64,000 bases of DNA, from assembly GCA_026225255.1 (NCBI GenBank), contig JAMFSJ010000059.1, positions 38,311 to 102,310 on the forward strand, in the 5' to 3' direction. Below are positions 2,090 to 56,130 of the stretch, one piece after another. Origin of the DNA: Methylacidimicrobium fagopyrum. Its GTDB lineage: Bacteria; Verrucomicrobiota; Verrucomicrobiia; Limisphaerales; UBA11358. A model generated the notes under the pieces. The model saw only the letters and a program-made list of their open reading frames with translations. It did not search any database and was not told the DNA's origin. The position numbers and the translations under genes are program-made. Numbering within the stretch: the stretch's first letter is position 1; every line of letters begins with the position of its first letter.

Positions 2090-3565
2090 TCATTCCTTTT
2101 CCGCAAATAATCCGACTTCAGAAATCGCCGGGCAGACCGGCGCTTGCACGCGCAAGCGAACTTTATCCGTTGTGATTTTTTCACCGCGCACCAGACGGCA
2201 ATTACCGATGCTCGTGCCGTTGGCGAATTCAGTCCATTTACCGTCCAACCATTGATCGAGCGCAAAAGTTTCCACGCGCTGGCCGAGCGGTAAATATTCG
2301 CGAATCCGAACCACGTTGAACGTCAACGGCTTTTTGAACGTGAGCACCAATTCAGCATTCGTCACGCTGTCATCGGTGGACCAGTATTTATTATCTTTGC
2401 CAGCGACAATATTCTTCGGTGCAAATTGTTTGTCGTCGCCACGCGTATTTGATGCGGTGACCGTCGCTTTTTTAGCAAGATCAGTTTTGAATGTATCTTC
2501 GATAATTTTGTGAAACGCTTCCAATGATTTTACGTCAGGCGCAGCAATTTGACCGCGTTTGTCAGGTGGTAAATTTAACAACAAGTTCGCACCACGACCA
2601 ACGGACTTGTAATAGAGATCCACCAATTCCGCCGGGGTTTTGACCTTGGCATCCTGATCAGCGTGATAAAACCAACTGGGACGAATGGAAACATCGCACT
2701 CGGCGGGAATCCAATCCGTTCCGGGCCGATCGCCATGCGTTAATCCACCCGTTTTATCGGCGATTCCAGGACCATAGTTGGCGCCGTTCAAAGTCGCCCA
2801 ACATGTGAGGCCGGCCACACCGTATTCATTGCCCACCCAGCGGGCGTCCGGACCGCCGTCACTGAAAATAACGGCCTGCGGTTGTAATTCGCGGATGATG
2901 CTCCACGTGTTTGGCCAATCGTAATACGTCTTGCGATTGATCTCGCGCTTTTCCCTGGCGCCGCCGTAATAACCATCGCCACCGTTCGCGCCGTCGAACC
3001 ATACTTCATTGATCGGGCCGTAGTTCGTCAGCAATTCGCGGAGTTGCTGGCGGTAATGCGGGATATAAGCCGGGGTGCCGTAATCGGCGCGATTGCGATC
3101 CCACGGCGAAAGATAAATGCCGAACTTGATCCCGTTTTTTTTGCAGGCGTCGGAAATAGCTTTCACAACATCACCCTTGCCATTTTCCCAATCGGAATTT
3201 TTCACCGAATGTTCCGTGTAGGCGGAAGGCCAGAGACAGAAGCCATCGTGATGTTTGGCGGTAAAGATCAATTCTTTCATGCCGCCCGCCTTGGCCGCGC
3301 GGACAATCTGGTCGGCATCAAAATCTGTCGGGTTAAAAACCTTTTCACTCTCATCGCCATAACCCCATTCTTTGCCGGTGAAAGTATTGACGGTAAAATG
3401 CACGAAGCAGGTAAGCTCCATTTTCTGCCACGCGAGTTGCCGTTCACTTGGCACCGGGCCGTAGGGCGCAGGCGGTTCCACGGCCAGCACCGTGCCCGCC
3501 AAAAAAAGGCCAGACATGGCCACAGCTAAAAACTTCATTCGAAAGTTATTTTTGATTGAATTCAT
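2090..3565 (-). CDS. Secreted alpha-L-fucosidase (GH29) with C-terminal F5/8-type-C (discoidin) domain
   Basis: GH29 motifs are present: FVHFTVNTFTGKEWGYGDE, FTAKHHDGFCLWPS, IYLSPWDRN. The start was chosen at MNSIKNNFRMKFLAVAMSGLFLAG (signal peptide). The ORF is open up to 3634 and an alternative ATG lies at 3538. Confidence 0.85.
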   Translation of the reverse strand: MNSIKNNFRMKFLAVAMSGLFLAGTVLAVEPPAPYGPVPSERQLAWQKMELTCFVHFTVNTFTGKEWGYGDESEKVFNPTDFDADQIVRAAKAGGMKELIFTAKHHDGFCLWPSAYTEHSVKNSDWENGKGDVVKAISDACKKNGIKFGIYLSPWDRNRADYGTPAYIPHYRQQLRELLTNYGPINEVWFDGANGGDGYYGGAREKREINRKTYYDWPNTWSIIRELQPQAVIFSDGGPDARWVGNEYGVAGLTCWATLNGANYGPGIADKTGGLTHGDRPGTDWIPAECDVSIRPSWFYHADQDAKVKTPAELVDLYYKSVGRGANLLLNLPPDKRGQIAAPDVKSLEAFHKIIEDTFKTDLAKKATVTASNTRGDDKQFAPKNIVAGKDNKYWSTDDSVTNAELVLTFKKPLTFNVVRIREYLPLGQRVETFALDQWLDGKWTEFANGTSIGNCRLVRGEKITTDKVRLRVQAPVCPAISEVGLFAEKE

Positions 3566-7965: not shown

Positions 7966-8030
7966 CATCCTCGTCGTCATCGTCATTCTCATAAATCGAA
8001 ATTGAGGATGACGATGAGAACGAGGACGAG
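7966..8030. repeat. Palindromic element, gaggatgaNgaNgag family
   Basis: Arms catcctcgtcgtcatcgtcattctca (7966-7991) and tgaggatgacgatgagaacgaggacgag (8003-8030). A second copy lies at 24588-24670. Confidence 0.6.
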
Positions 8031-8048
8031 AAAAATTGAAATTTATTT

Positions 8049-9305
8049 ATGAGTGAACAACACGGTTTCATGAAAGCGCTCAAGTGCCGCGAATGCGGCC
8101 GCGAATATCCGCTCACGGCTACGCACGTCTGCGAATTTGACTTCGGCCCGCTTGAGGTCGCCTACGATTACGAGCGCATCAAAAAATCGCTCACGCGCGA
8201 AGCCATCGCGTCGCGCCCGAAAACCATGTGGCGTTATCGCGAACTGCTGCCCATCGCCGGCGAACCGACGGTCGGCAAGCAAGTCGGTTTCACGCCGCTC
8301 GTGAAGGCCGATCGCCTCGCGAAGAAACTCGGCATCCGCGAACTTTACATCAAAAACGACGCCGTGAATTATCCGACGCTCTCGTTCAAGGACCGCGTCG
8401 TCAGCGTTGCGCTGAGCCGCGCGAAGGAACTCGGTTTTGAAACCGTTGCATGTGCGTCCACCGGCAATTTGGCCAACTCCGTTGCCGCCAATGCGGCGAG
8501 CGCGGGCTTAAAATCCTACGTTTTTATTCCGTCGGATTTGGAACAGGGAAAAATTTTGAACTCGCTCATCTACGGCGCAAACGTCATCGCCATCAAAGGC
8601 CATTACGACGAAGTGAATCGTCTCTGCGCCGAGATCGCGGGCAAGTTCGGCTGGGCGTTCGTGAACGTCAATATGCGCCCCTACTATGCCGAAGGCTCAA
8701 AGAGCATGGCGTATGAGATCGCCGAACAACTCGGTTGGAAATTGCCGGATCACACGATTGTCCCGATGGCGTCCGGCTCGTTGCTGACGAAGATTCACAA
8801 AGGCTATCAGGAATTGACCAAGCTAGGTTTGGTGTCGGCGCACAATACGCACATCCACGGGGCGCAGGCGACGGGCTGTTCGCCGATTTCGGTTGCGCAA
8901 AAAGCGGGCTTGGATTTCTTCAAGCCGGTGAAGCCCGACACGATCGCGAAATCACTCGCCATTGGCACGCCGGCGGACGGTTTCTATGCGCTCAAAGTGA
9001 TGCGCGAAACAGCCGCCTACGCCGACGACGTGAGCGACGACGAAATCCGCGACGCGATCAAATTGCTCGCGGAAACGGAAGGCATTTTTGCCGAGACCGC
9101 CGGCGGCGTGACCGTAGGCGTGGCCAAAAAACTCATCGCGTCCGGTAAGATTCCGAAAGATTCTTCGGCCGTGATCTGCGTCACTGGCAATGGATTAAAA
9201 ACGCTCGACGCCGTCAACGGTTACTGCGGCAAACCGCGCGAAATCAAGCCAAGTTTGCGTGAGTTTGAAGCATTGTTGGCGCACGAAGAAAAAGTCGGTG
9301 TATAA
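8049..9305 (+). CDS. Threonine-synthase-family PLP enzyme (ThrC paralogue; predicted O-phosphohomoserine-dependent homocysteine synthase)
   Basis: 418 aa. It has an N-terminal Cys ribbon (CRECGREY...HVCEFDFG) and the PLP-lysine motif YPTLSFKDR. Family assignment is firm. The homocysteine role is inferred from the SAM riboswitch and the adjacent GG-carrier. Confidence 0.85.
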   Translation: MSEQHGFMKALKCRECGREYPLTATHVCEFDFGPLEVAYDYERIKKSLTREAIASRPKTMWRYRELLPIAGEPTVGKQVGFTPLVKADRLAKKLGIRELYIKNDAVNYPTLSFKDRVVSVALSRAKELGFETVACASTGNLANSVAANAASAGLKSYVFIPSDLEQGKILNSLIYGANVIAIKGHYDEVNRLCAEIAGKFGWAFVNVNMRPYYAEGSKSMAYEIAEQLGWKLPDHTIVPMASGSLLTKIHKGYQELTKLGLVSAHNTHIHGAQATGCSPISVAQKAGLDFFKPVKPDTIAKSLAIGTPADGFYALKVMRETAAYADDVSDDEIRDAIKLLAETEGIFAETAGGVTVGVAKKLIASGKIPKDSSAVICVTGNGLKTLDAVNGYCGKPREIKPSLREFEALLAHEEKVGV

Positions 9306-10399: not shown

Positions 10400-10810
10400 T
10401 TACTTGTGCGTGCGGCGTTTGACTTTGAGTTGCGCCAAGGAATGAGCGAGCGCAGCGCCAGCAGCAGCGGCTTCGCTTTCTGTGATCTTTTCTGTCAGCC
10501 GGGATTCAGCGCGTTGACGGGCTTCTTCGGCTTTTGCTTCGTCAATGTTCTCGGCCAAGATCGCCATGTCCGTGAGAATGGCTACCCGATCACCGGTGAT
10601 CTGCACGAAGCCATCACCGACCGCGAGATAAATCACTTCTGCGCCTTTGCGGGCGATGATTTCCCCAGCGACAAGCTGCGTCATCAGCGGCATGTGCTGC
10701 GGATAAATCCCCATCTCGCCCTCGATACCCGTGAGCGTGACCATTTCCACATCGTCGGAATACGTCTTCGCTTCCGGTGTGACAATCTCAAGTTTTAAGG
10801 TGGCAGCCAT
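10400..10810 (-). CDS. atpC: F1 ATP synthase epsilon subunit
   Basis: 136 aa. LKLEIVTPE...GEMGIYPQHMPLMTQL is typical of epsilon. It is the last gene of the atp operon. Confidence 0.9.
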   Translation of the reverse strand: MAATLKLEIVTPEAKTYSDDVEMVTLTGIEGEMGIYPQHMPLMTQLVAGEIIARKGAEVIYLAVGDGFVQITGDRVAILTDMAILAENIDEAKAEEARQRAESRLTEKITESEAAAAGAALAHSLAQLKVKRRTHK

Positions 10811-16124: not shown

Positions 16125-17162
16125 TTAATGACTGTGTTCGTCGTCCGTGTGGGAACAAAGCGTTCCCGCGAAGGCCACCGTCAACATTGCAAACACAAAG
16201 GCTTGCAACGCGCACACCACGGTTTCAAAAAAGTAACCCGGCAAGGCGAGCAGCACAGCCATCAAGACCGACTTCTGCGACATCGCCATCGTCAACATCG
16301 TTTCGCCGCCGAAAATATTTCCGTAAAGACGCAACGCGAGCGCCACCGGACGGATGAACAAAATGGAGAACGATTCCATGACACCGATGAAAATGAACAG
16401 TAACAGCAACAACGGATACAACCATTTGGTCGTTGCGACTTTGACGCCGAAGACGTGTTTCACAAGCCCAATCGGGCCGTTATATTTGAGCGCCCAATAA
16501 AGGCACATCACAAAGAAAATTCCCGCCATCGCCACTGTCAAATTGGCATCGGTCGTGGGCGGACGAAAAAACGGCGTCGCTACGTGCGGCACAGAAAACG
16601 GCAGCGAACTAGTCTTATCAATTTCCGCCGTCGGAACAAAACCAATACTACCCATGCCCGGCAGCAAATCGGTGAAATTGGAAATCATGATGAAGATCAA
16701 ATAAGTCGCCGCCAACGGAAAAACCCACTTAACGACTTTCGGCTCCAACACGTTGCCCATCAAATTTTCCCAACCTTCCAAAACCGCTTCCATGAAATTC
16801 TGACCGGAGCTCGGAATTTCTTTCACTTTCCAAACCGTCACGCGAACAATGACAATGATCAACAAGGCTACGATCCAAGTGCAGATCATTGAATTGGTAA
16901 CCGGCAGCGGTCCGATATGAAAAACGGTCAAGGCCGATTGCGAAACGAGCGGTTGCGAGGCCTCAGCGTGAGCGGACTCCACCGCTTGCACCACTGCCGA
17001 CGGCGCCGGAGCAGAAGAAACTGCAGCGTTCGCTCCGACCACAAAAGTCGTCGCAAACAAAATCAAAAACAGAATTAATCGGCTGATTTGCTTCACAAAA
17101 AATGATACCGAACGACACCAATTGCTACGGTTAGTTAAACCGATGATGTGATCGGGAAACAA
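16125..17162 (-). CDS. atpB: Fo ATP synthase a subunit with long N-terminal extension
   Basis: 345-aa ORF. The C-terminal half has a-subunit motifs (LALRLYGNIFGGE with the essential Arg). The true start is uncertain; the ORF begins with a non-ATG codon and an internal GTG near 17095 is possible. Confidence 0.8.
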   Translation of the reverse strand: MFPDHIIGLTNRSNWCRSVSFFVKQISRLILFLILFATTFVVGANAAVSSAPAPSAVVQAVESAHAEASQPLVSQSALTVFHIGPLPVTNSMICTWIVALLIIVIVRVTVWKVKEIPSSGQNFMEAVLEGWENLMGNVLEPKVVKWVFPLAATYLIFIMISNFTDLLPGMGSIGFVPTAEIDKTSSLPFSVPHVATPFFRPPTTDANLTVAMAGIFFVMCLYWALKYNGPIGLVKHVFGVKVATTKWLYPLLLLLFIFIGVMESFSILFIRPVALALRLYGNIFGGETMLTMAMSQKSVLMAVLLALPGYFFETVVCALQAFVFAMLTVAFAGTLCSHTDDEHSH

Positions 17163-17257: not shown

Positions 17258-18145
17258 TCATTTATTTTCACGCAAAAAATCCGGTGTTTTTCCCGCCGCG
17301 CGTAACTGCCGTAAACTCAAAGCATCATGACGCTTGGCCAACCGCTGGCCAGACTCATCTAAAATCAATGCACAATGATAAAAATCCGGTGGCATCAGCC
17401 CCAGCGCCCGATATAATAAAATCTGCCGTGCCGTGCTCACGAGTAAGTCCGCACCGCGCACGACTTCGGTGATCTGCATCGCCGCATCGTCCACCATGCA
17501 GGCGAGCTGATAGGCCGGAACATCGTCCGGTCGCCACACCACGAAATCACCAAAATCCTTTCCAGCAACAAACCGTTGTTCACCGAAATTTTTATCCCCG
17601 AAGGAAATGGTTTCGCCATCCGGCACGCGAAAACGCCACGAAATCTTAGTTGCTGGTTGCTGGTTACTGGCTGCAAGTTCATTTTCGCGAACGCCCAACT
17701 TACAACTTTCAACCGACAACTTATAACCGCGTTCCCGACACGTCCCGGGATAAATCAATTCGTCATCACCGGCATGCGGCGCGCTGGCGGATTGCTGGAT
17801 GTCTTTGCGCGAACAGGAGCAGGGATAAATAAAATTTCCAGCACGCAATTTTTCCAACGCTGTGCGATAGAATGAAAACCGTTCGCTTTGATTATAAGGC
17901 GCAAATGGGCCGCCGCTATCCGGGCCTTCGCTCCACTTAAAACCGAACCAGCGCAAGTCTTCGATCATCGCGGCAACAAACTCTGGTTGGCAACGCGCAG
18001 CATCCAGGTCTTCGTTGCGGAGGATCAATTCGCCGCCCGCCGCACGGGCGCGTTGTTGCGCCACCCAAAATGTTTTCGCATGACCCAGATGCAAAAACCC
18101 GGTCGGCGACGGCGCGAGACGTCCGCGATATTTAATGGGATTCAT
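17258..18145 (-). CDS. gluQ: Glutamyl-Q tRNA(Asp) synthetase (GluQRS, YadB family)
   Basis: 295 aa. Truncated GluRS catalytic domain: GRLAPSPTGFLHLGHAKT, CSCSRKDI...YPGTCR zinc motif, VVDD...ITEVVRGADL. Confidence 0.85.
   Translation of the reverse strand: MNPIKYRGRLAPSPTGFLHLGHAKTFWVAQQRARAAGGELILRNEDLDAARCQPEFVAAMIEDLRWFGFKWSEGPDSGGPFAPYNQSERFSFYRTALEKLRAGNFIYPCSCSRKDIQQSASAPHAGDDELIYPGTCRERGYKLSVESCKLGVRENELAASNQQPATKISWRFRVPDGETISFGDKNFGEQRFVAGKDFGDFVVWRPDDVPAYQLACMVDDAAMQITEVVRGADLLVSTARQILLYRALGLMPPDFYHCALILDESGQRLAKRHDALSLRQLRAAGKTPDFLRENK
17648..17721. repeat. Palindromic element lying in-frame inside gluQ
   Basis: Arms agttgctggttgctggttactggctgcaagtt (17648-17679) and aacttacaactttcaaccgacaactt (17696-17721). 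It encodes about 25 aa (...KLSVESCKLGVRENELAASNQQPAT...) right after the zinc motif. Confidence 0.55.
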
Positions 18146-25882: not shown

Positions 25883-27811
25883 TTATTTTTGGGCGAGATC
25901 ACGGGCGGCCGTCGGCGGTAGAAATTTTTCATCCGTCAACGTTTTCAAAAATGCCACCAACGCCCGTTTATCCACCGCCTTCAACGGCAAGCCGCCGTCA
26001 GGATGTTTTGCCAGATTAGGATCCAGCGTCGCGCTGCGTTTCATGCCCGTGCAATAATGTTCTACCACTTCATCCAAGGTCCGAAAGCGTCCATCGTGCA
26101 TGTAAGGCGCGGTCACTGCGACATTACGCAACGATGGCACGGAAAATTTTCCGCCATCGCCCACGCGCTTCGTCGCCTGATAACGACCCAAATCACGGAA
26201 CACGGAATCCAATCCGTTGTTCGCAAAATCCTGACTCTGAAACAACGGTCCGCCGTGACAATGAAAACAATCCGCACCGAATTGCCCGTGATATGGATCG
26301 TATTCCGTGTTGAATAATTCGAAACCACGCTGTTCTTGCGCTGTGAATTGCGCGCGCCCATTCATCACGCGATCAAATTTCGCGTCGAACGAAACTTGCA
26401 CGAGGAGAAATTGCTCCAGCGCCCGGGCGATTTTATCGACGTTGATTTCCGGTGAACCAAATGTTTTCGTGAACATCCGGTGATAATCAGAATCGGCTGA
26501 AATTTTCGCGACCGCGCTCGCCAGCGATTCGTGCATCTCGACGGGATTTTGAATCGGCTGCAAAACCTGTTCGCGCAGCGTGGCCGCCCGTCCGTCCCAG
26601 AAGAATGAATTTCTCCATGCGAGATTTTCCAGTGGCATCGCGTTGCGTGTGCCGAGCAAGCCATCCACACCGCGACTGAACCGGCGCGGCTGCGCGAACG
26701 CCAGATGTGGATTGTGACAGTTCGCGCACGATTGCCGGTCGCCCGATGAAAGTCGGCGGTCGAAAAATAATTGGCTGCCCAAGGCGACGCCTTCGACCGT
26801 GAGCGGATTATCGCGCGGCAAATCCGGCGTCGGCGCGAATTGCGAAATCGTCAGCCGATACGGCGTCGCGTCCGGCGCTATCATAATCTTGGTGGCACGG
26901 GCGTCTCGCCCGTCAAATCCGGCGTCCCGCCGGATTTCGTTTGAGGTGAGATTGGTTTGTGGTGTGCGCATACTAACGACTTGCCCATGCGCATCAGCAG
27001 TTTCGGGCGCGACGCCCGAAATAACGGGCCAGAGGCCCGTGCCACCCACCGAAAACGCCGCGATCACATTCTCCCGCAATTGAACCGCTAACCAATCATT
27101 CGTCCGCGAATGGCTGGTGTCCGTCCGGTCACTTAATTCAATTTTGTTTGGCGCCGAAAATATTTCACCGACATCCAACGCGATTTGCATTTCGCGACTG
27201 CTGCTCAAATCCAAATCCACCGGCAACTCGACTGTCATCAATTCACGGTCGGTGGCGATGTGATACGAAAAGCCGCTTTGCTTGCCGCCGTCCAGCCAAC
27301 CGCCTTCGAGCGCGAGAAAAACATATTCGTGCGACCAATCCCAATACAGATGATTTACCTGCGGATTCAGCGGATGCCCCGCCGGCCACTGCGTGGAATT
27401 GCCGTGATTTACTGGCGGTTCAAGCCCGACTTGAAAACGCGCGCGGTCATAACTACCGGTCGGAACCTCAGTTAAAGTGAAGTTAGTTTTGCCATCGCGG
27501 GCGCTGATATAGGCGAACCAATTTGGCTGACCAATCCACGTTCCATCCGCGCGACGCAAGGCAAAATTTGACAGCAGAAAATCGAGTCGCGTGACGGAAA
27601 TTTTTTGACCCGATGACGTTTGATTTACAAGCTTGTCGAAACCCAATGGTGCGCCGTTGAATTTTGCGATGAGGTTGACTTCAAGATTCGCTGAAGCTCC
27701 AAACGTCAAGCTCCAAGCACCAAAGAACATCCAAAAGCCAAGCACCAAGCATTGCGCGCTTCGCATATTCATTCGCTTCAACAATTTGAAATTCGTCATT
27801 TGAAATTTCAT
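25883..27811 (-). CDS. Fusion protein: MbnP-like N-terminal domain + repeat-derived linker + di-heme cytochrome c peroxidase/MauG/MbnH-like domain
   Basis: 642 aa with a signal peptide. The C-terminal half has two CxxCH heme motifs: CANCH (26714-26728) and CFHCH (26255-26269), in CCP/MauG-family context (LGSQLFFDRRLS...). The N-terminal approx 250 aa (RLDFLLSNFAL, HLYWDWSHEYVFLALEGGW) resembles the MbnP partner family by memory only. Confidence 0.75.
   Translation of the reverse strand: MKFQMTNFKLLKRMNMRSAQCLVLGFWMFFGAWSLTFGASANLEVNLIAKFNGAPLGFDKLVNQTSSGQKISVTRLDFLLSNFALRRADGTWIGQPNWFAYISARDGKTNFTLTEVPTGSYDRARFQVGLEPPVNHGNSTQWPAGHPLNPQVNHLYWDWSHEYVFLALEGGWLDGGKQSGFSYHIATDRELMTVELPVDLDLSSSREMQIALDVGEIFSAPNKIELSDRTDTSHSRTNDWLAVQLRENVIAAFSVGGTGLWPVISGVAPETADAHGQVVSMRTPQTNLTSNEIRRDAGFDGRDARATKIMIAPDATPYRLTISQFAPTPDLPRDNPLTVEGVALGSQLFFDRRLSSGDRQSCANCHNPHLAFAQPRRFSRGVDGLLGTRNAMPLENLAWRNSFFWDGRAATLREQVLQPIQNPVEMHESLASAVAKISADSDYHRMFTKTFGSPEINVDKIARALEQFLLVQVSFDAKFDRVMNGRAQFTAQEQRGFELFNTEYDPYHGQFGADCFHCHGGPLFQSQDFANNGLDSVFRDLGRYQATKRVGDGGKFSVPSLRNVAVTAPYMHDGRFRTLDEVVEHYCTGMKRSATLDPNLAKHPDGGLPLKAVDKRALVAFLKTLTDEKFLPPTAARDLAQK
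26891..27046. mobile_element. MITE-like 156-bp element (GGTGGCAC...GTGCCACC termini), copy A, inside the coding frame
   Basis: ggtggcacgggcgtctcgcccgt-caaatccggcgtcccgccggatttcgtt ... tttcgggcgcgacgcccgaaat-aacgggccagaggcccgtgccacc. It has the same architecture and about the same length as copy B at 30496-30650. Confidence 0.6.
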
Positions 27812-32151: not shown

Positions 32152-32226
32152 GGGGAGAGACTCTGTCGAACCCTAACATTGTTGCGCGTCCAATTTAGTT
32201 AGAGCTCGACGGAGTCTCGCTCCACC
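32152..32226. repeat. Palindromic element, cgacggagtctcgcc family, between convergent genes
   Basis: ggggagagactctgtcgaaccc (32152-32173) versus gagctcgacggagtctcgctccacc (32202-32226). Confidence 0.6.
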
Positions 32227-32238
32227 AGTTTTTAAAAT

Positions 32239-33456
32239 TTATTTCAAAAACAATTCCGCCGCCGCATCCGCAAAACGCAGCCCTTGCGGCGTGAGTTGAA
32301 AATAATTTTCCGTGCGCGACGCCCAACCGCGTTCGGACAATTGGTTCATCTCGGAATCCCATTCCTGACGCAGATCAAAACGGGTCACGCGCTTGAACTC
32401 ATCGAACGGCCAGCCGGCATTCATCCGTAAACCGAACGCGGCGATTTCGCCCGCACGTTTGGGCGGCGATAATTCCTCACTGGATTCGATGGCACGTCTG
32501 CCTTTTTCCAACTGCTCGCAATACAGTTGCGTATTGGACCAATTCTTCGTCCGCACGCCGCGCACGTAACCGGTCGCGCTCGGGCCGAGGCCGTAGTAAT
32601 CGCCGCCGCGCCAGTAGTTCACGTTGTGTTTGCTCGCGCGTTCCGGAATGACAGAATGACGGATGACGGATGACGCACTTTCTGGCCCGATCATTTGACC
32701 TTCGTCCTTCGTCATTTTTCCAACGCGCGCAAAATTCGCAATTTCGTATTGCTGAAAACCGGCATTCGTCGCGTGCGAAATCAGTTCGTTATACATGTCG
32801 CAGGCCAGATCTTCATCCACGGAAAATTCGCCGGCTTGTAGTTGGTGGAACAACGGCGTGTCGTCTTCGTAAATCACTTCGTAACTGGACAGATGTTCAC
32901 TCTGCATCGCGGCGGCTTCGTTGAGCGTATCGCGCCAGATTTCCATCGTCTGCGTGGGAATGGCGAACATCAGGTCAAGATTGATGTTCTCAAAACCGGC
33001 GCGCCGCAAGATATCGAACGATTTGAAAACCGTTTCGCGCGAGTGAATGCGGCCGAGACGGTCGAGCAATTTTTCATCGAGCGATTGCACGCCCATCGAA
33101 ATGCGGTTCACGCCAAAATCGCGCAGCAACTTGGCTTTGTCGGCGGAAACCGTGGCAGGATTACTCTCGACGGTGAATTCTTCCGCGCCGAGCAGATTGA
33201 ATTTTTCCATCGCGCGCAAAATGGTTTCCCATTGGCGCAGGTTCAATAGCGACGGCGTGCCACCGCCGAAGAAAACCGTGCGCGGCTTGAGATCGGCGGC
33301 GACAATTTCCAATTCGCGCACGAGGCCGTCAACATAGCGGTTCACCAACTCGCCCGAGGACGCTTCCGAATAGAAAGCGCAATACACGCATTTCTGCGCG
33401 CAAAACGGGACGTGAACATAAAGGCTCGTTATGGGGGTCGTGGACGAATCCGGCAT
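32239..33456 (-). CDS. hemW: Radical-SAM heme chaperone HemW (HemN-like, oxygen-independent coproporphyrinogen oxidase family)
   Basis: 405 aa. Radical-SAM motif YVHVPFCAQKCVYCAF, GGGTPS, and ...HNVNYWRGGDYYGLGPSA. Confidence 0.85.
   Translation of the reverse strand: MPDSSTTPITSLYVHVPFCAQKCVYCAFYSEASSGELVNRYVDGLVRELEIVAADLKPRTVFFGGGTPSLLNLRQWETILRAMEKFNLLGAEEFTVESNPATVSADKAKLLRDFGVNRISMGVQSLDEKLLDRLGRIHSRETVFKSFDILRRAGFENINLDLMFAIPTQTMEIWRDTLNEAAAMQSEHLSSYEVIYEDDTPLFHQLQAGEFSVDEDLACDMYNELISHATNAGFQQYEIANFARVGKMTKDEGQMIGPESASSVIRHSVIPERASKHNVNYWRGGDYYGLGPSATGYVRGVRTKNWSNTQLYCEQLEKGRRAIESSEELSPPKRAGEIAAFGLRMNAGWPFDEFKRVTRFDLRQEWDSEMNQLSERGWASRTENYFQLTPQGLRFADAAAELFLK
32647..32717. repeat. Palindromic element lying in-frame inside hemW
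   Basis: gaatgacagaatgacggatgacggatgacgcac (32647-32679) versus gatcatttgaccttcgtccttcgtcattt (32689-32717). It encodes ...KMTKDEGQMIGPESASSVIRHSVIP... between the conserved YEIANFAR and HNVNYW blocks. Confidence 0.6.
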
Positions 33457-33524
33457 GGAAACACATTAGGCGGCGCAGAGCGGATTGTCCAGCCAAGCTG
33501 GCGCTCTCAGTGCCGTGTGGAACT

Positions 33525-47096: not shown

Positions 47097-48104
47097 ATGG
47101 CTGGATTTCTTGACGATATTGAACCGCTGAAACAAACTGCGCTGACGGAATTGAAAAACGCGCCCGATCTCGCCGCCTTGGAACAAACCAAAGGCGCGTG
47201 GGTCGGACCGAACGGCAAATTCACCGCGCTGATGAAACAGCTCGGCACGCTTTCCAAGGAAGAAAAGCCCGCCGCCGGAAAATTGATCAATGCCGCCAAG
47301 GTCGAACTCGAAACCGTGCTCGTCGCGCGCCGGGAAGAATTGGAACTCAAAGCTGCGTTGCCGAAGGAACCGACCGATTTCACCCTGCCCGGCCGCCGCC
47401 GCGCGCTCGGCAAATTGCATCCGCTTACGCAGGTCACCGATGACATCGTCCGCGCCTTCCGCAAAATTGGTTTCGCCGTCGCCGACGGACCGGAGATCGA
47501 GGACGAATATCATTGCTTCGACGCGCTCAACACGCCCGCCGACCATCCGGCGCGCGATGCGCAGGATACATTTTATCTCAACACGACGGATAAGCGTTTG
47601 CTCCGCACGCACACCTCGTCGGTGCAAATTCGCGTGATGAAATCGCAACCGCCACCGGTGCGCATCATCGTGCCGGGCCGCGTGTATCGCCGCGACAACG
47701 CCGACGCCACGCATAATCCGACATTCCACCAAATCGAAGGTCTTTACGTGGATAAAAACGTCACCGTAGGCGACCTGAAAGGCACCGTGGAATTCGTCTT
47801 CCGCGAACTCATGGGCAGCGACGTGAAGATCCGTTTCCGTCCGCATTATTTCAGCTACACCGAGCCGAGCTACGAGATTGATTTCACCAACGCGCTCGTG
47901 AAGAAGATGGGCAAGGACTGGCTGGAGATCGCCGGCTGCGGCATGGTGCATCCGCAAGTCTTCGAGAACGTCGGCTACGATCCCGAAACGTGGACCGGCT
48001 GGGCCTTCGGCTTCGGCATCGAACGCATCGCCATGCTCCGCTACGGCATCAATGACATCCGGCTGTTCTACGAGAACGATGCAAAGTTTTTGAAACAGTT
48101 TTAA
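47097..48104 (+). CDS. pheS: Phenylalanine--tRNA ligase alpha subunit
   Basis: 335 aa. Class II motifs are present: DHPARDAQDTFYL, RTHTSSVQIR, FRPHYFSYTEPSYEID, GWAFGFGIERIAML. Confidence 0.95.
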   Translation: MAGFLDDIEPLKQTALTELKNAPDLAALEQTKGAWVGPNGKFTALMKQLGTLSKEEKPAAGKLINAAKVELETVLVARREELELKAALPKEPTDFTLPGRRRALGKLHPLTQVTDDIVRAFRKIGFAVADGPEIEDEYHCFDALNTPADHPARDAQDTFYLNTTDKRLLRTHTSSVQIRVMKSQPPPVRIIVPGRVYRRDNADATHNPTFHQIEGLYVDKNVTVGDLKGTVEFVFRELMGSDVKIRFRPHYFSYTEPSYEIDFTNALVKKMGKDWLEIAGCGMVHPQVFENVGYDPETWTGWAFGFGIERIAMLRYGINDIRLFYENDAKFLKQF

Positions 48105-53751: not shown

Positions 53752-54087
53752 TCACTTTTTCTTCCCCGCGCCCGTCACGGTATCTTTAGCTTTTTTAAAA
53801 AGTTTGCGCGTTTTACGCAACCAAATCCGCGCCCAGACAAACTCCGTCGCCAGCACCGCGAGGCCGATGGGAATTACCACGATCGCCGGGCCGGGCAAAA
53901 CAATCATGGCAATACCCACGAGCAAAATGGTGCCGCCAATCACCGCGATGATCACGCGTCGCACGAACGGCGGCACGTCTTCCAGATGCAACAGTTTGCG
54001 GATGCGGCCGCGCAGCCCGCGCGGAGGTTTACGTTCGCGATTTTCCACAAAAATCACTCCGTCACGCCGAGCGGCGGCATGGGACAA
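53752..54087 (-). CDS. PGPGW-domain small membrane protein
   Basis: VIIAVIGGTILLVGIAMIVLPGPAIVVIPIGLAVLATEFVWAR. An alternative GTG start at 54057 would form a GTGA overlap with the upstream stop. Confidence 0.7.
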   Translation of the reverse strand: MSHAAARRDGVIFVENRERKPPRGLRGRIRKLLHLEDVPPFVRRVIIAVIGGTILLVGIAMIVLPGPAIVVIPIGLAVLATEFVWARIWLRKTRKLFKKAKDTVTGAGKKK

Positions 54088-56030
54088 TCCAACGTGTCCG
54101 AAATCGCCCGGAGCAATTCCGCTTCGCTTTCCTGGATCACACCGTCCGCACCAACGACGTGCGCGCAGGCTTCGAGCAGATTTTTTTTGATGATCGGCAC
54201 GGCTTGCGCCAGGCGATCGAGCGCGACGCCGACTTGGTCAATACCGCAACGTTCGTCCGGTTGCAAAACCAATTCCGAATCATCCGTCGTCCGCAAAAAC
54301 GGCGCACCGGTGTCGAACGCTTTTTGAATTTCGCCCGCGTCGTTGCTGCCAACATTCGCGAGCGCGGATAAAATAAGCGCGCAATCCGGCACGAGCGGTT
54401 TGAGCGTGTAAAACTGCACCGTCACCGGATTGGCCGCCCCAAATTTCGGCGCGAGATGACGTTGCACGATTTTTTGCAGAACGAATTCAAATAGTCCCAC
54501 TTCGCCATCACTTTGGATGAGCCATGAAAGGGTTCGCGAAAAATTTTGAAATTGTTCCGTGCTCAATTGTTTCAACGCTCCCAAAGCAAGATTGACTAAG
54601 GGCAATCGCGCGGTCGTGCCGGTTTTGGCAACGTCGGCAAACAGCGCGTCCGTTTTTTCAGCGACGGCGGGCGAAACGCTTTTGGCAATTTGCGCGAGTT
54701 GGTCGACATGCAATTTTCCATCCGCGCTCAAAATCAACGCGTAGATCAAGGCGACGGCGGCGAGCGGTTCGCGCACGGCGAGCTTTAGATTTTCCGGCAA
54801 CGCGGCGCGCATGTCTTCGGCGTAGCGCAAATGCAGCGGCGTGGGATTGCCGAGATTCGGCAAGACATAGCGCGATTTGATGACGGGCGGCGCCGCAATT
54901 TGATCTTCGCCGGCGCCAAGAATCGCGCCACCGAGAATGATCATCTTGCCATCCACGAAAACCGGACGCCGTTCGCGCGGGCGATTTGGGGCCAACGAAT
55001 CTGTTTCTTCCGACACGTTCACGACTTGAAATTTTCCATCCCAATTCGGGTCAATGGCTTTGATGCGTTGCTCGAGCGGCGGATGCGTGGCCAGCGCGCC
55101 GAACAACGAATCCGCCAAGCCGTTCGCAAAAAATAAGTGGCTGGCATCCGACGCGTGTGGCGATTCCAAATGCGACGCGCTGCCGCCGATTTTTTGGAGC
55201 GCGCCGGAAAGCCCGGCCGGATTGCGCGTGAATTGCACGGACGACGCGTCGGCGAGAAATTCGCGCTGACGGCTGACGGCGGCTTGAATCAAGCGACCAA
55301 AAAAAAGTCCGAGCGAACCAATAACCAAAAGTAAAATACCGATGAGCGGCAGTGGGTTTTTATCGCGACTATTGCTGCTGCGCGCATAGAGCAAAATCCG
55401 CCCGATGGTGGCGAGGCAAAATATACCGAACAAAATACCGATGAGCCGGACGTTCAACTTCATGTCGCCATTCAAAATGTGGCTGAATTCGTGGCCGATC
55501 ACGCCTTGCAATTCATCGCGTGACAAGGTCTGCATACAGCCGCGCGTCACGGCGACCACGGCATCGCTGGTCGTATGACCGGCGGCAAAGGCGTTGATGC
55601 CGCGTTCGTCATCGAGCACATAAACCTGCGGCATCGGCACGCCGGACGCGATGGACATTTCTTCGACGACGTTCAGCAATTTGCGCTCGTCCGGATCATT
55701 CGTGTTGGAAGCCAGCAACCGTCCACCGAGCGATTCCGCCACCGCGCCGCCGCCGCTCGCCAGCGCCATGGTCTTGTAAGCGCTACCACAAAAAATCACG
55801 ATGATGGTTCCCAACGCAACTTCGGCGAATAGTTTTGGATCCCAATAATTGATCGGCGGCATTTGCGAATAATCCTCGTAACGATGATGACGCGACGCTC
55901 CTGTGTAAGTGGACGCAAACACCGCTACGCCGTAAATCATCAGGATCATCGAGATGACGGCGAGGGTGAAATAAAATACCAGCCACTTCGTTTTGCGCTG
56001 GGCTTTGGCTTGTTGTTCAAAAAAATCCAT
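54054..56030 (-). CDS. M48-family (HtpX-like) zinc metalloprotease with long C-terminal TerB-like region
   Basis: 658 aa. HEFSHILNGD (HExxH) lies between TM segments. The C-terminal ...VVGADGVIQESEAELLRAISDTL is TerB-like. Confidence 0.8.
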   Translation of the reverse strand: MDFFEQQAKAQRKTKWLVFYFTLAVISMILMIYGVAVFASTYTGASRHHRYEDYSQMPPINYWDPKLFAEVALGTIIVIFCGSAYKTMALASGGGAVAESLGGRLLASNTNDPDERKLLNVVEEMSIASGVPMPQVYVLDDERGINAFAAGHTTSDAVVAVTRGCMQTLSRDELQGVIGHEFSHILNGDMKLNVRLIGILFGIFCLATIGRILLYARSSNSRDKNPLPLIGILLLVIGSLGLFFGRLIQAAVSRQREFLADASSVQFTRNPAGLSGALQKIGGSASHLESPHASDASHLFFANGLADSLFGALATHPPLEQRIKAIDPNWDGKFQVVNVSEETDSLAPNRPRERRPVFVDGKMIILGGAILGAGEDQIAAPPVIKSRYVLPNLGNPTPLHLRYAEDMRAALPENLKLAVREPLAAVALIYALILSADGKLHVDQLAQIAKSVSPAVAEKTDALFADVAKTGTTARLPLVNLALGALKQLSTEQFQNFSRTLSWLIQSDGEVGLFEFVLQKIVQRHLAPKFGAANPVTVQFYTLKPLVPDCALILSALANVGSNDAGEIQKAFDTGAPFLRTTDDSELVLQPDERCGIDQVGVALDRLAQAVPIIKKNLLEACAHVVGADGVIQESEAELLRAISDTLDCPMPPLGVTE

Positions 56031-56130
56031 GGCTTAAATTTACGATATTCGATTTACCAACGGATTGGCGATGGCGAGTTGTTAATCACGTTAAAATCAT
56101 AACTATAATTTTAATGGGACCAAAAGCACC

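Follow-up and report, generated by a model that had tools for sequence, protein, structure and literature searches.

This report concerns a small inverted repeat that lies in frame within hemW, the gene for the radical-SAM heme chaperone, in a 64,000-nucleotide stretch of Methylacidimicrobium fagopyrum DNA (assembly GCA_026225255.1, contig JAMFSJ010000059.1, positions 38,311 to 102,310 of the forward strand), hereafter called the window. The open reading frame was identified as hemW by the profile TIGR00539 (255.9 bits, cutoff 205.4) and by the Pfam domains Radical_SAM and HemN_C, and its 120 closest database homologues are 78–87% identical, with lengths of 387–435 residues. The TIGR00539 match comes in two stretches, one on either side of the insert, with the break at residue 250. 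The features of the locus are as follows, with arms named by their place in mRNA sense.

32239–33456, minus strand: hemW, 405 residues, with the frame intact across the element (TIGR00539, Pfam)
32645–32648: GGAA, which together with TTCC forms a small palindrome (GGAA...TTCC) bracketing the element, placed by comparison with minimal-loop orthologues
32647–32675: arm 1, the 3' arm, with the plus strand reading AATGACAG AATGACG GATGACG GATGACG and encoding SSVIRHSV
32676–32688: spacer (hairpin loop) of 13 nt, CACTTTCTGGCCC, read from the sequence
32689–32716: arm 2, the 5' arm, with the plus strand reading GATCATT TGACCTT CGTCCTT CGTCATT
32718–32721: TTCC, the other half of the bracketing palindrome, which pairs with the GGAA half in predicted folds

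The element as a whole (32647–32716) consists of four heptamers of the (A/G)ATGACG type, the 13-nt spacer and four inverted heptamers, and gives about 22 extra residues in frame. In mRNA sense arm 2 reads AATGACG AAGGACG AAGGTCA AATGATC and encodes KMTKDEGQMI. The 3' arm is the better preserved, with 25 of 28 positions retained plus one extra base, and the 5' arm, which keeps 22 of 28, has eroded; Tandem Repeats Finder (TRF) reported a perfect period-7 array of 2.9 copies (100%) at 32656–32675. The resulting stop-free peptide, KMTKDEGQMIGPESASSVIRHSVIPERA, is bounded by YEIANFAR and HNVNYW, and the protein sequence from the one to the other is VGKMTKDEGQMIGPESASSVIRHSVIPERASK. Minimal-loop alleles, as found in the relatives L008 and L023 (loci and proteins of relatives are given here as L and P numbers), end in an intact tiny palindrome, GGAAAAATTCC, and compared with such orthologues the window allele has 66 nt (22 codons) more between the GGAA and TTCC halves. 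An earlier note on this DNA had described an imperfect palindrome of about 70 bp in the hemW frame without a stop, which is present at exactly the positions given there. Its repeat units, tgacgNNtgacg, also exist, although their correct form is that of 7-nt tandem units (TRF period 7), and the insert it put at about 25 residues is indeed lineage-specific and in frame, with a net gain of 22 codons over the minimal-loop orthologues.

Taken alone the palindrome is weak, because its folding energy lies within the range of shuffled sequences (DNA z = -1.06, RNA z = -0.91); the best inverted pair within the element covers 14 nt at 86% identity (12/14). What stands out is the tandem structure. A test for an array together with an inverted partner was used in place of folding energy, which was not significant, and only 0.15% of 60-nt segments drawn at random from the window contained an inverted partner that matched the array at 12/14 within 60 nt; dinucleotide shuffles of the window gave no period-7 arrays. 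A scan of 32200–33500 against Rfam matched no family. Near-perfect copies of the same family are found at the same site in relatives, namely L183 (P0062; -29.7 kcal/mol), L184 (P0071; -32.8 kcal/mol) and L185 (P0021), so that the window copy is a decayed member of a real family. An assembly artefact as the source of such structures was considered and rejected, since the same structures are present in megabase-scale contigs (L014, L040).

The comparison of HemW covered 41 loci from GTDB species-representative genomes, a set that does not include the source genome, these being metagenome-assembled genomes of the Verrucomicrobiota, order Limisphaerales (subdivision 3), with the best hemW locus 86% identical to that of the window. 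Counted from NFA to HNVNYW, the loop has 7 residues (e.g. LPGYESK) in all 13 HemW proteins from other phyla, as the earlier note had stated for E. coli HemW, and 33 residues in the window protein; across 159 Limisphaerales orthologues it ranges from 13 to 43 residues. Outside the loop, 156 of the 159 clade orthologues have exactly 234 + 123 residues with no other indel, and all length variation among them is thus confined to one site, which follows the strand YEIANFA and precedes the conserved (I/L)P-x3-[SC]K-HNVNYW block. The remaining three proteins have 8–27 extra residues in the N-terminal 234-residue part, these being the sole indels outside this hot spot. The orthologue alignment thereby supports what had been proposed from the sequence, namely that repeat DNA of hairpin architecture has been inserted in frame into a permissive loop and that this insert is specific to the lineage. 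Modelling of HemW with AlphaFold2 (69 sequences; mean predicted local distance difference test score, pLDDT, 69.8; predicted template modelling score, pTM, 0.70), a check that had also been proposed, gave pLDDT below 50 and coil without secondary structure for residues 248–268, flanked by strands at 241–244 and 281–284. The model fits a surface loop that is disordered and tolerated, a low pLDDT being in itself no proof of surface exposure.

The HemW loops fall into many mutually unalignable families, the majority of which can be recognized as hairpins or 7-nt tandem arrays in translation; their number is stated as 'many' here since clustering of the loop peptides at an automatic threshold over-split them (96 clusters). 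These families include MTNDECRMTN...HSSFVIRHS, SKVQSPKSK...TLDFGHWTLD, KSFKFQVSS...LLETEHLKLET, PLTRPSDTLSPSDGERDGVRG, GTPVSDPARFE...RRTGERRSE and GQASSLS...DRLEACP, together with short types such as (T/S)LNSQPSTLN and the minimal GELGGEK. With turnover gauged by Kimura distances outside the loop, unrelated loops were seen in pairs of proteins that are only 0.03–0.05 apart (P0060/P0026, P0052/P0033, P0092/P0029, P0114/L038 and L005/P0061), which means that proteins of 3–5% divergence switch among heptamer hairpins, G+C-rich hairpins and minimal loops. Individual loop families are scattered over the HemW tree, and the nearest relatives of the window protein carry other loops (P0004 at 0.077; L001, P0003 and P0005 at 0.086; P0002 at 0.089), with the nearest member of its own family first reached at rank 44. 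HemW of this clade hence has a single insertion hot spot at which many small, mutually unrelated repeats replace one another very rapidly, much faster than the rest of the protein changes, and this, together with the eroded state of the window copy, is the main point that the earlier note missed. Synteny upstream of hemW is too variable for a clean comparison of filled and empty sites. Hypervariation by a diversity-generating retroelement was rejected as a source of the diversity, with whole blocks of repeat DNA being exchanged rather than single bases.

Period-7 or period-8 arrays are found in the HemW loop of 17 of about 42 loci with DNA. Inverted pairs of arrays occur in L004 (AGTCCAA x4.6 ... 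TTGGACA x4.3), L024 and L025, while single arrays of about 4.4 units adjoin the conserved Ile-Pro codons in L006, L011, L014, L016, L028, L029, L031, L033 and L038. Other loops are G+C-rich hairpins, such as that of L022 (-27.6 kcal/mol, z = -6.1), and the minimal loops are without any hairpin. The window-family copies in L183–L185 sit 5' of an intact GGAAATTCC or GGGAATTCCC, and the window copy lies between the palindrome halves; this placement a few bases apart speaks for separate arrivals. In L186 (P0098) the minimal loop is interrupted by another kind of hairpin, TTGGAGTGC...GCACTCCAA, with AAATTAA on both sides.

Reading frame places a particular constraint on this family. A pure (AATGACG)n array with n of at least 3 must contain an in-frame TGA, and because 7 mod 3 = 1 the stop falls in every frame, so that a perfect element in either orientation would truncate the protein. 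The opposite arm, (CGTCATT)n, is stop-free and encodes HSSFVIR. The critical stop unit is altered in every HemW copy, to TGT in L183, L184 and L185, to TCT in L027 and to GGT in the window, and stop-codon avoidance thus explains the asymmetric decay of the arms. TGT variants are found also among family copies that are mostly between genes, so that stop-free copies were available. The arms are truncated in L015 and L027. In L039, whose hemW is 86% identical to that of the window, the gene is frameshifted by exactly one unit in a CTCTCAA array (10737–10758; 3.1 units, versus 4.4 in L014 and L031), reflecting either real slippage or an assembly error.

The elements are not confined to hemW. In 671 kb of clade DNA there were 55 period-7 arrays (8.2 per 100 kb), compared with 2 in 319 kb of outgroup DNA (0.6 per 100 kb) and 0–1 in shuffles. 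The clade arrays have about 4.4 heptamers, with copy number sharply peaked at 4.0–4.7, and often occur as inverted pairs; Limisphaerales genomes are rich in elements of this class, which lie in intergenic DNA as well as in frame inside genes. Paired arrays outside hemW were located at L014 8904–8977, L025 2137–2217, L028 1722–1798, L032 4358–4490 (nested), L038 16780–16846, L052 10568–10660 and window 17649–17729, and in L034 the same unit forms two inverted pairs within 4.3 kb (20–94 and 2279–2378). Several units recur across genomes, and their irregularities recur with them: AGTCCAA in hemW of L004 and L015 and at another place in L032, AACATTC, of which L001 has three occurrences, CTCTCAA...CTTC, common to pheS of L009 and hemW of L014, L031 and L039, and ATTTACG with an odd unit resembling ATATTGG in L025 and L036. 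A short intergenic array of the ATTTACG type, ATTTACGATATTCGATTTACC, is present in the window at 56038–56058, just upstream of the open reading frame 54054–56030 (minus strand), and its odd middle unit is the same as in the L025 and L036 arrays. In L001, the closest relative of the window with DNA, (TTGAATG)x9.3 at 8102–8166 upstream of hemW stands opposite an inverted partner of 2–3 units in the adjoining region of about 7990–8100, so that the arm has expanded on one side only; a G+C-rich hairpin is present in this intergenic region as well.

The AATGACG family to which the window element belongs (family A) was searched in metagenome contigs with the pattern ACGAATGACGAATG-N5-35-CATTCGTCATTCGT, and hairpins of this pattern were found in at least 120 contigs, with G+C contents of 0.49–0.68. 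Among the listed copies the median length is 74 nt, with arms of 2–7 units (about 28 nt) and spacers of 5–35 nt, and 81 of 120 fall outside long open frames. Irregular units have their mirror image on the other arm (AAGC/GCTT, TCTAATG/CATTAGA), and one subfamily has a common spacer, GAAGAGCGCTCTTC.

Two further elements of the window lie in frame within genes, the first being a second heptamer foldback and the second belonging to a different repeat class.

17649–17729: (GTTGCTG)x3.7 ... (CAACTTA)x4.6 foldback, from TRF and the sequence, in frame in the GluQRS-like gene 17258–18145 (minus strand)
26891–27046: cluster of four short G+C-rich hairpins, from the sequence (e.g. ACGGGCGTCTCGCCCGT, AATCCGGCGTCCCGCCGGATT), in frame in the open reading frame 25883–27811 (minus strand)

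The GluQRS-like gene matches Pfam tRNA-synt_1c, with TRF reporting period 7 at 17649–17727, and its homologues have a hypervariable site at the position of the foldback, occupied by several element families: KLQVESCKL...TFNLQPAT, the G+C-rich GTGVSPV...HGRDARAT, GVRSAE...SALRTPH, KWQVTSD and a minimal form, with the homologue P0165 carrying a family-A copy there. In pheS of L009 (20621–20830) an in-frame CTCTCAA array of 4.3 units gives AKPAGSQPSTLNSQL in place of NTTDKR; pheS of the window (47504–47686) and of L015 are without the array. The protein of L038 with a GTGATGC hairpin (16780–16846) has a 44%-identical homologue in L176 with an AATGACG hairpin at the same position (about 3486–3555), so that turnover at one site is not peculiar to hemW. 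The idea that events of the same kind affect other genes was thus borne out, in GluQRS by a hypervariable site with the same families and in pheS by the array of a relative. The hairpin cluster at 26891–27046 lies in the linker between MbnP (42–229) and CCP_MauG (340–487), and the GTGVSPV...HGRDARAT peptide type occurs both in this cluster and in the GluQRS homologues.

Considering all of these results, we regard the hemW element as an old, partly eroded foldback repeat of the AATGACG family, which came to lie in frame (+66 nt) at the single hot spot of hemW, and we assign this reading a probability of about 0.65. A function of the insert itself is improbable. Copies would arrive as ready-made units by a process leaving no target duplication, and arrival would favour sites that are prone to hairpins or already occupied. 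Candidate routes are hairpin- or single-strand-directed transposition in trans by an HUH/Y1-type enzyme, or repair-associated copying from another copy. Within genes only stop-free copies of in-frame length would survive. As the sequences show, a copy once arrived erodes by point changes (those of the 5' arm being forced by stop avoidance), by slippage of units and by deletion of arms.

Several results weigh against such an arrival. No second copy of the element was found in the 64-kb window by blastn-short, and 118 family-A copies showed neither target-site duplications, with direct end repeats at chance level, nor a conserved flank or tag or a clear target, the palindromy of their flanks also being at chance. 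Spacers are mostly unrelated among the listed family-A copies, which is unusual for copy-and-paste elements. As many as 36 different heptamer units among the 55 clade arrays, and the likeness of the unit to neighbouring codons in the loops of L016 and L006, fit local slippage, while the array in pheS substitutes 51 nt for 24 nt and is not a simple interruption of an empty site. The neighbour-joining tree is shallow, so that old loop alleles exchanged by recombination could give the appearance of repeated insertion. As to enzymes, tblastn with E. coli RAYT (the tyrosine transposase that is associated with repetitive extragenic palindromes, REPs) and IS608 TnpA sequences as queries detected no transposase in the window, and over 1.3 Mb of loci it gave weak hits in L007 and L052 only. 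The L007 gene (2599–3165, about 550 nt downstream of hemW) encodes a RAYT homologue (NF047646 at 75.6 bits, cutoff 80; PDB 4ER8 at E = 8e-5; no Pfam hit), and neither the window nor the other loci gave a further homologue of it. Next to it, at 3180–3310, lie G+C-rich hairpins of the GGAGTGCGGC...GCCGCACTCCAA type, a type that also interrupts the HemW loop of P0098/L186 but is not of the heptamer type. This gene and its hairpins may be a REPtron of these genomes, and with regard to mechanism the homologue is a lead only. The lack of a second copy and of a transposase in the window, the missing target duplications and the mostly unrelated spacers leave the earlier notion of a selfish mobile element as a supposition.

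Many of these same results would follow if arrays and their inverted partners grew in place from a small palindrome or direct repeat, by replication slippage with template switching or hairpin-templated repair, the families then being convergent or evolving in concert. Such local growth would account for the variety of units, the unrelated spacers and the missing target duplication, for the units resembling boundary codons in L016 and L006, for the one-sided (TTGAATG)x9.3 expansion of L001, for the unit lost in L039 and for irregular units that are mirrored on both arms. It does not readily produce the same unit with the same irregularities at unrelated sites and contigs (the outer AAGC/GCTT unit; ATATTGG in L025 and L036) or CTCTCAA..CTTC in both pheS and hemW; stepwise growth by 7 nt within a gene would moreover pass through frameshifted intermediates, and drift in place cannot switch families between proteins of 3–5% divergence. 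We thus infer that it is less likely than the arrival of ready-made units, and on the whole unlikely, yet still a serious rival. Also doubtful, though worth stating, is an undescribed process in Limisphaerales and other AATGACG-bearing soil bacteria that writes arrays of about four 7-nt units together with their inverted copies; it would act at hairpin-prone sites or breaks, with a hairpin-directed HUH enzyme, a short-template copying polymerase or a reverse transcriptase as candidates.

The remaining explanations have much less in their favour. A unit length that is not a multiple of three, together with the L039 gene frameshifted by exactly one array unit, could indicate a contingency locus in which the 7-nt repeat of hemW serves as a slipped-strand on/off switch, but this is very improbable considering that the arrays are short (about 4 units) and in the window degenerate, with only 2.9 perfect units, that 41 of 42 loci are in frame, that the lone frameshift may be an assembly error and that the same arrays are found in intergenic DNA and in the genes of tRNA synthetases, where a switch is hardly to be expected. 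We hold it to be just as improbable that the insert is selected for a role, be it the hairpin (in pausing, mRNA stability or protein binding) or the extra peptide in HemW. All clade members keep at least 6–7 extra residues, the arms are of strikingly uniform length (about 4 units), and heptamer repeats have been proposed as binding sites of regulators or cold-shock proteins (PMC4679880, PMC2700814); however, even near-identical proteins differ in the sequence and length of the insert, the folding of the window hairpin does not surpass that of shuffled sequences, the loop comes out disordered in the model and the minimal loops do without a hairpin. An ordinary fast-evolving loop that is palindromic by chance, as the folding z of about -1 and the arm match of only 12/14 might suggest, has hardly any probability left in view of the perfect 2.9-unit array with its nearby inverted partner (p of about 0.0015), the same-site copies of relatives at -30 to -33 kcal/mol and the presence of the family in at least 120 contigs.

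Compared with known systems, the foldback repeat of hemW is not a member of the Rickettsia palindromic elements (RPEs), the REPs or the MITEs (transposable elements of the miniature inverted-repeat kind). RPEs, reportedly described by Ogata et al. in 2000, share with it that small palindromic repeats lie in frame in conserved housekeeping genes and add a peptide without destroying the protein, and that several families exist per genome with no transposase of their own. The hemW gene is likewise read through, with a peptide that is extra relative to the 13 outgroup proteins. The term RPE-like, as used previously, is for this reason apt for the effect, but the element is not an RPE: it is from Verrucomicrobiota (Limisphaerales), has arms of four tandem heptamers each and a 13-nt spacer in place of a unique consensus, and belongs to a class with variable spacers. 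No sequence relation to RPEs was seen, the distinction being one of architecture and not of alignment to an RPE consensus. An RPE family has many copies in one genome; of the AATGACG family no further copy was found in the 64-kb window, and the family is common in metagenomes and present in other genes of relatives. To our knowledge, turnover of many families at a single site is not a described feature of RPEs. RPE-4 and RPE-6 have been classed as CGTC-tagged REPs with stems of 8–9 bp (PMC3733652).

REPs of the GTAG/CGTC type have stems of 5–13 bp and short loops, with in-frame cases in known proteins of many bacteria (PMC3733652), and REPs and REPINs are mobilized by RAYTs (PMC3733652, PMC2817692). 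The elements studied here resemble them as hairpin repeats without target duplications that occur also inside coding regions of known proteins, and through the RAYT homologue of L007. They differ in having arms of about 28 nt made of four heptamers, with no conserved GTAG or CGTC tag among 118 family copies, and no cognate RAYT flanked by the repeats was found in the window and the 1.3 Mb of loci, the L007 gene being flanked by another repeat. MITEs and eukaryotic foldback elements are non-autonomous elements of about 50–120 bp with inverted arms, built of short tandem repeats in foldback elements, and a variable centre. The hemW element is similar in its inverted arms, variable centre, size and non-autonomous nature, but unlike in MITEs the end repeats of the 118 copies are at chance, with no target-site duplication, and no parent insertion sequence was found.

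Heptamers themselves have a longer history, the short tandemly repeated repetitive (STRR) heptamers of cyanobacteria reportedly having been described by Mazel et al. in 1990. Geobacter metallireducens has tandem heptanucleotide elements of four or five units within and between genes (PMC2700814), and TAACTGA arrays with no known mechanism occur in Beggiatoaceae and cyanobacteria, for which the stop-codon constraint on in-frame copies has been raised (PMC4679880). The hemW class agrees with these in its 7-nt units, in copy numbers of about four or five and in its dispersal between and within genes, as seen in the TRF hits and the 8.2 versus 0.6 arrays per 100 kb. Those systems are mainly direct arrays with one or a few units per genome, in contrast to the dozens of units, the common hairpin-forming inverted pairs and the concentration at protein hot spots found here. 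With regard to a contingency locus, one relative, L039, is frameshifted by one unit, and the window array is degenerate. Our literature search found no paper containing the family-A sequence, nothing specific on repeats of Limisphaerales or Pedosphaera, and no description of heptamer-armed Verrucomicrobia hairpins or of many families that replace one another at a single site.

Most known palindromic repeats that lie in frame come from Rickettsia, with scattered REP cases besides, and short arrays of heptamers have gone unexplained in some bacteria for decades; the hemW locus joins the two. Since hundreds of metagenomes offer the filled, empty and swapped alleles of a single short region, the locus makes testable how such repeats arise or move, how proteins tolerate inserts and how new peptide segments are born. 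For annotation, odd low-complexity Verrucomicrobia peptides such as MTNDECRMTN, HSSFVIRHS, SKVQSPKSK and TLDFGHWTLD are to be read as translated repeats. The array-writing process mentioned above, if true, would make heritable, rapidly renewed 'cassette' loops in highly conserved proteins, and could explain the heptamer repeats of cyanobacteria (STRR), Geobacter and Beggiatoaceae.

Two minor observations concern the hemW sequences. The 22 nt at 32714–32735, just 5' of the element in mRNA sense (ATTTTGCGCGCGTTGGAAAAAT, encoding NFARVGK), match in 21 of 22 positions ATTTTGCGCGCGATGGAAAAAT at 33201–33222 (encoding ILRAMEKF), 487 nt upstream in hemW (BLAST E 9e-5, window); the match may be fortuitous, or it may have been left by template switching during remodelling of the loop. 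In addition, the contigs L008, L009, L021, L022, L026, L028 and L030 encode HemW proteins of the Limisphaerales type, 73–81% identical to that of the window, and are titled as Methylomirabilota, Bifidobacteriaceae, Sulfotelmatobacter, Pseudomonadales or Angelobacter, these seven bins probably being mislabelled or contaminated.

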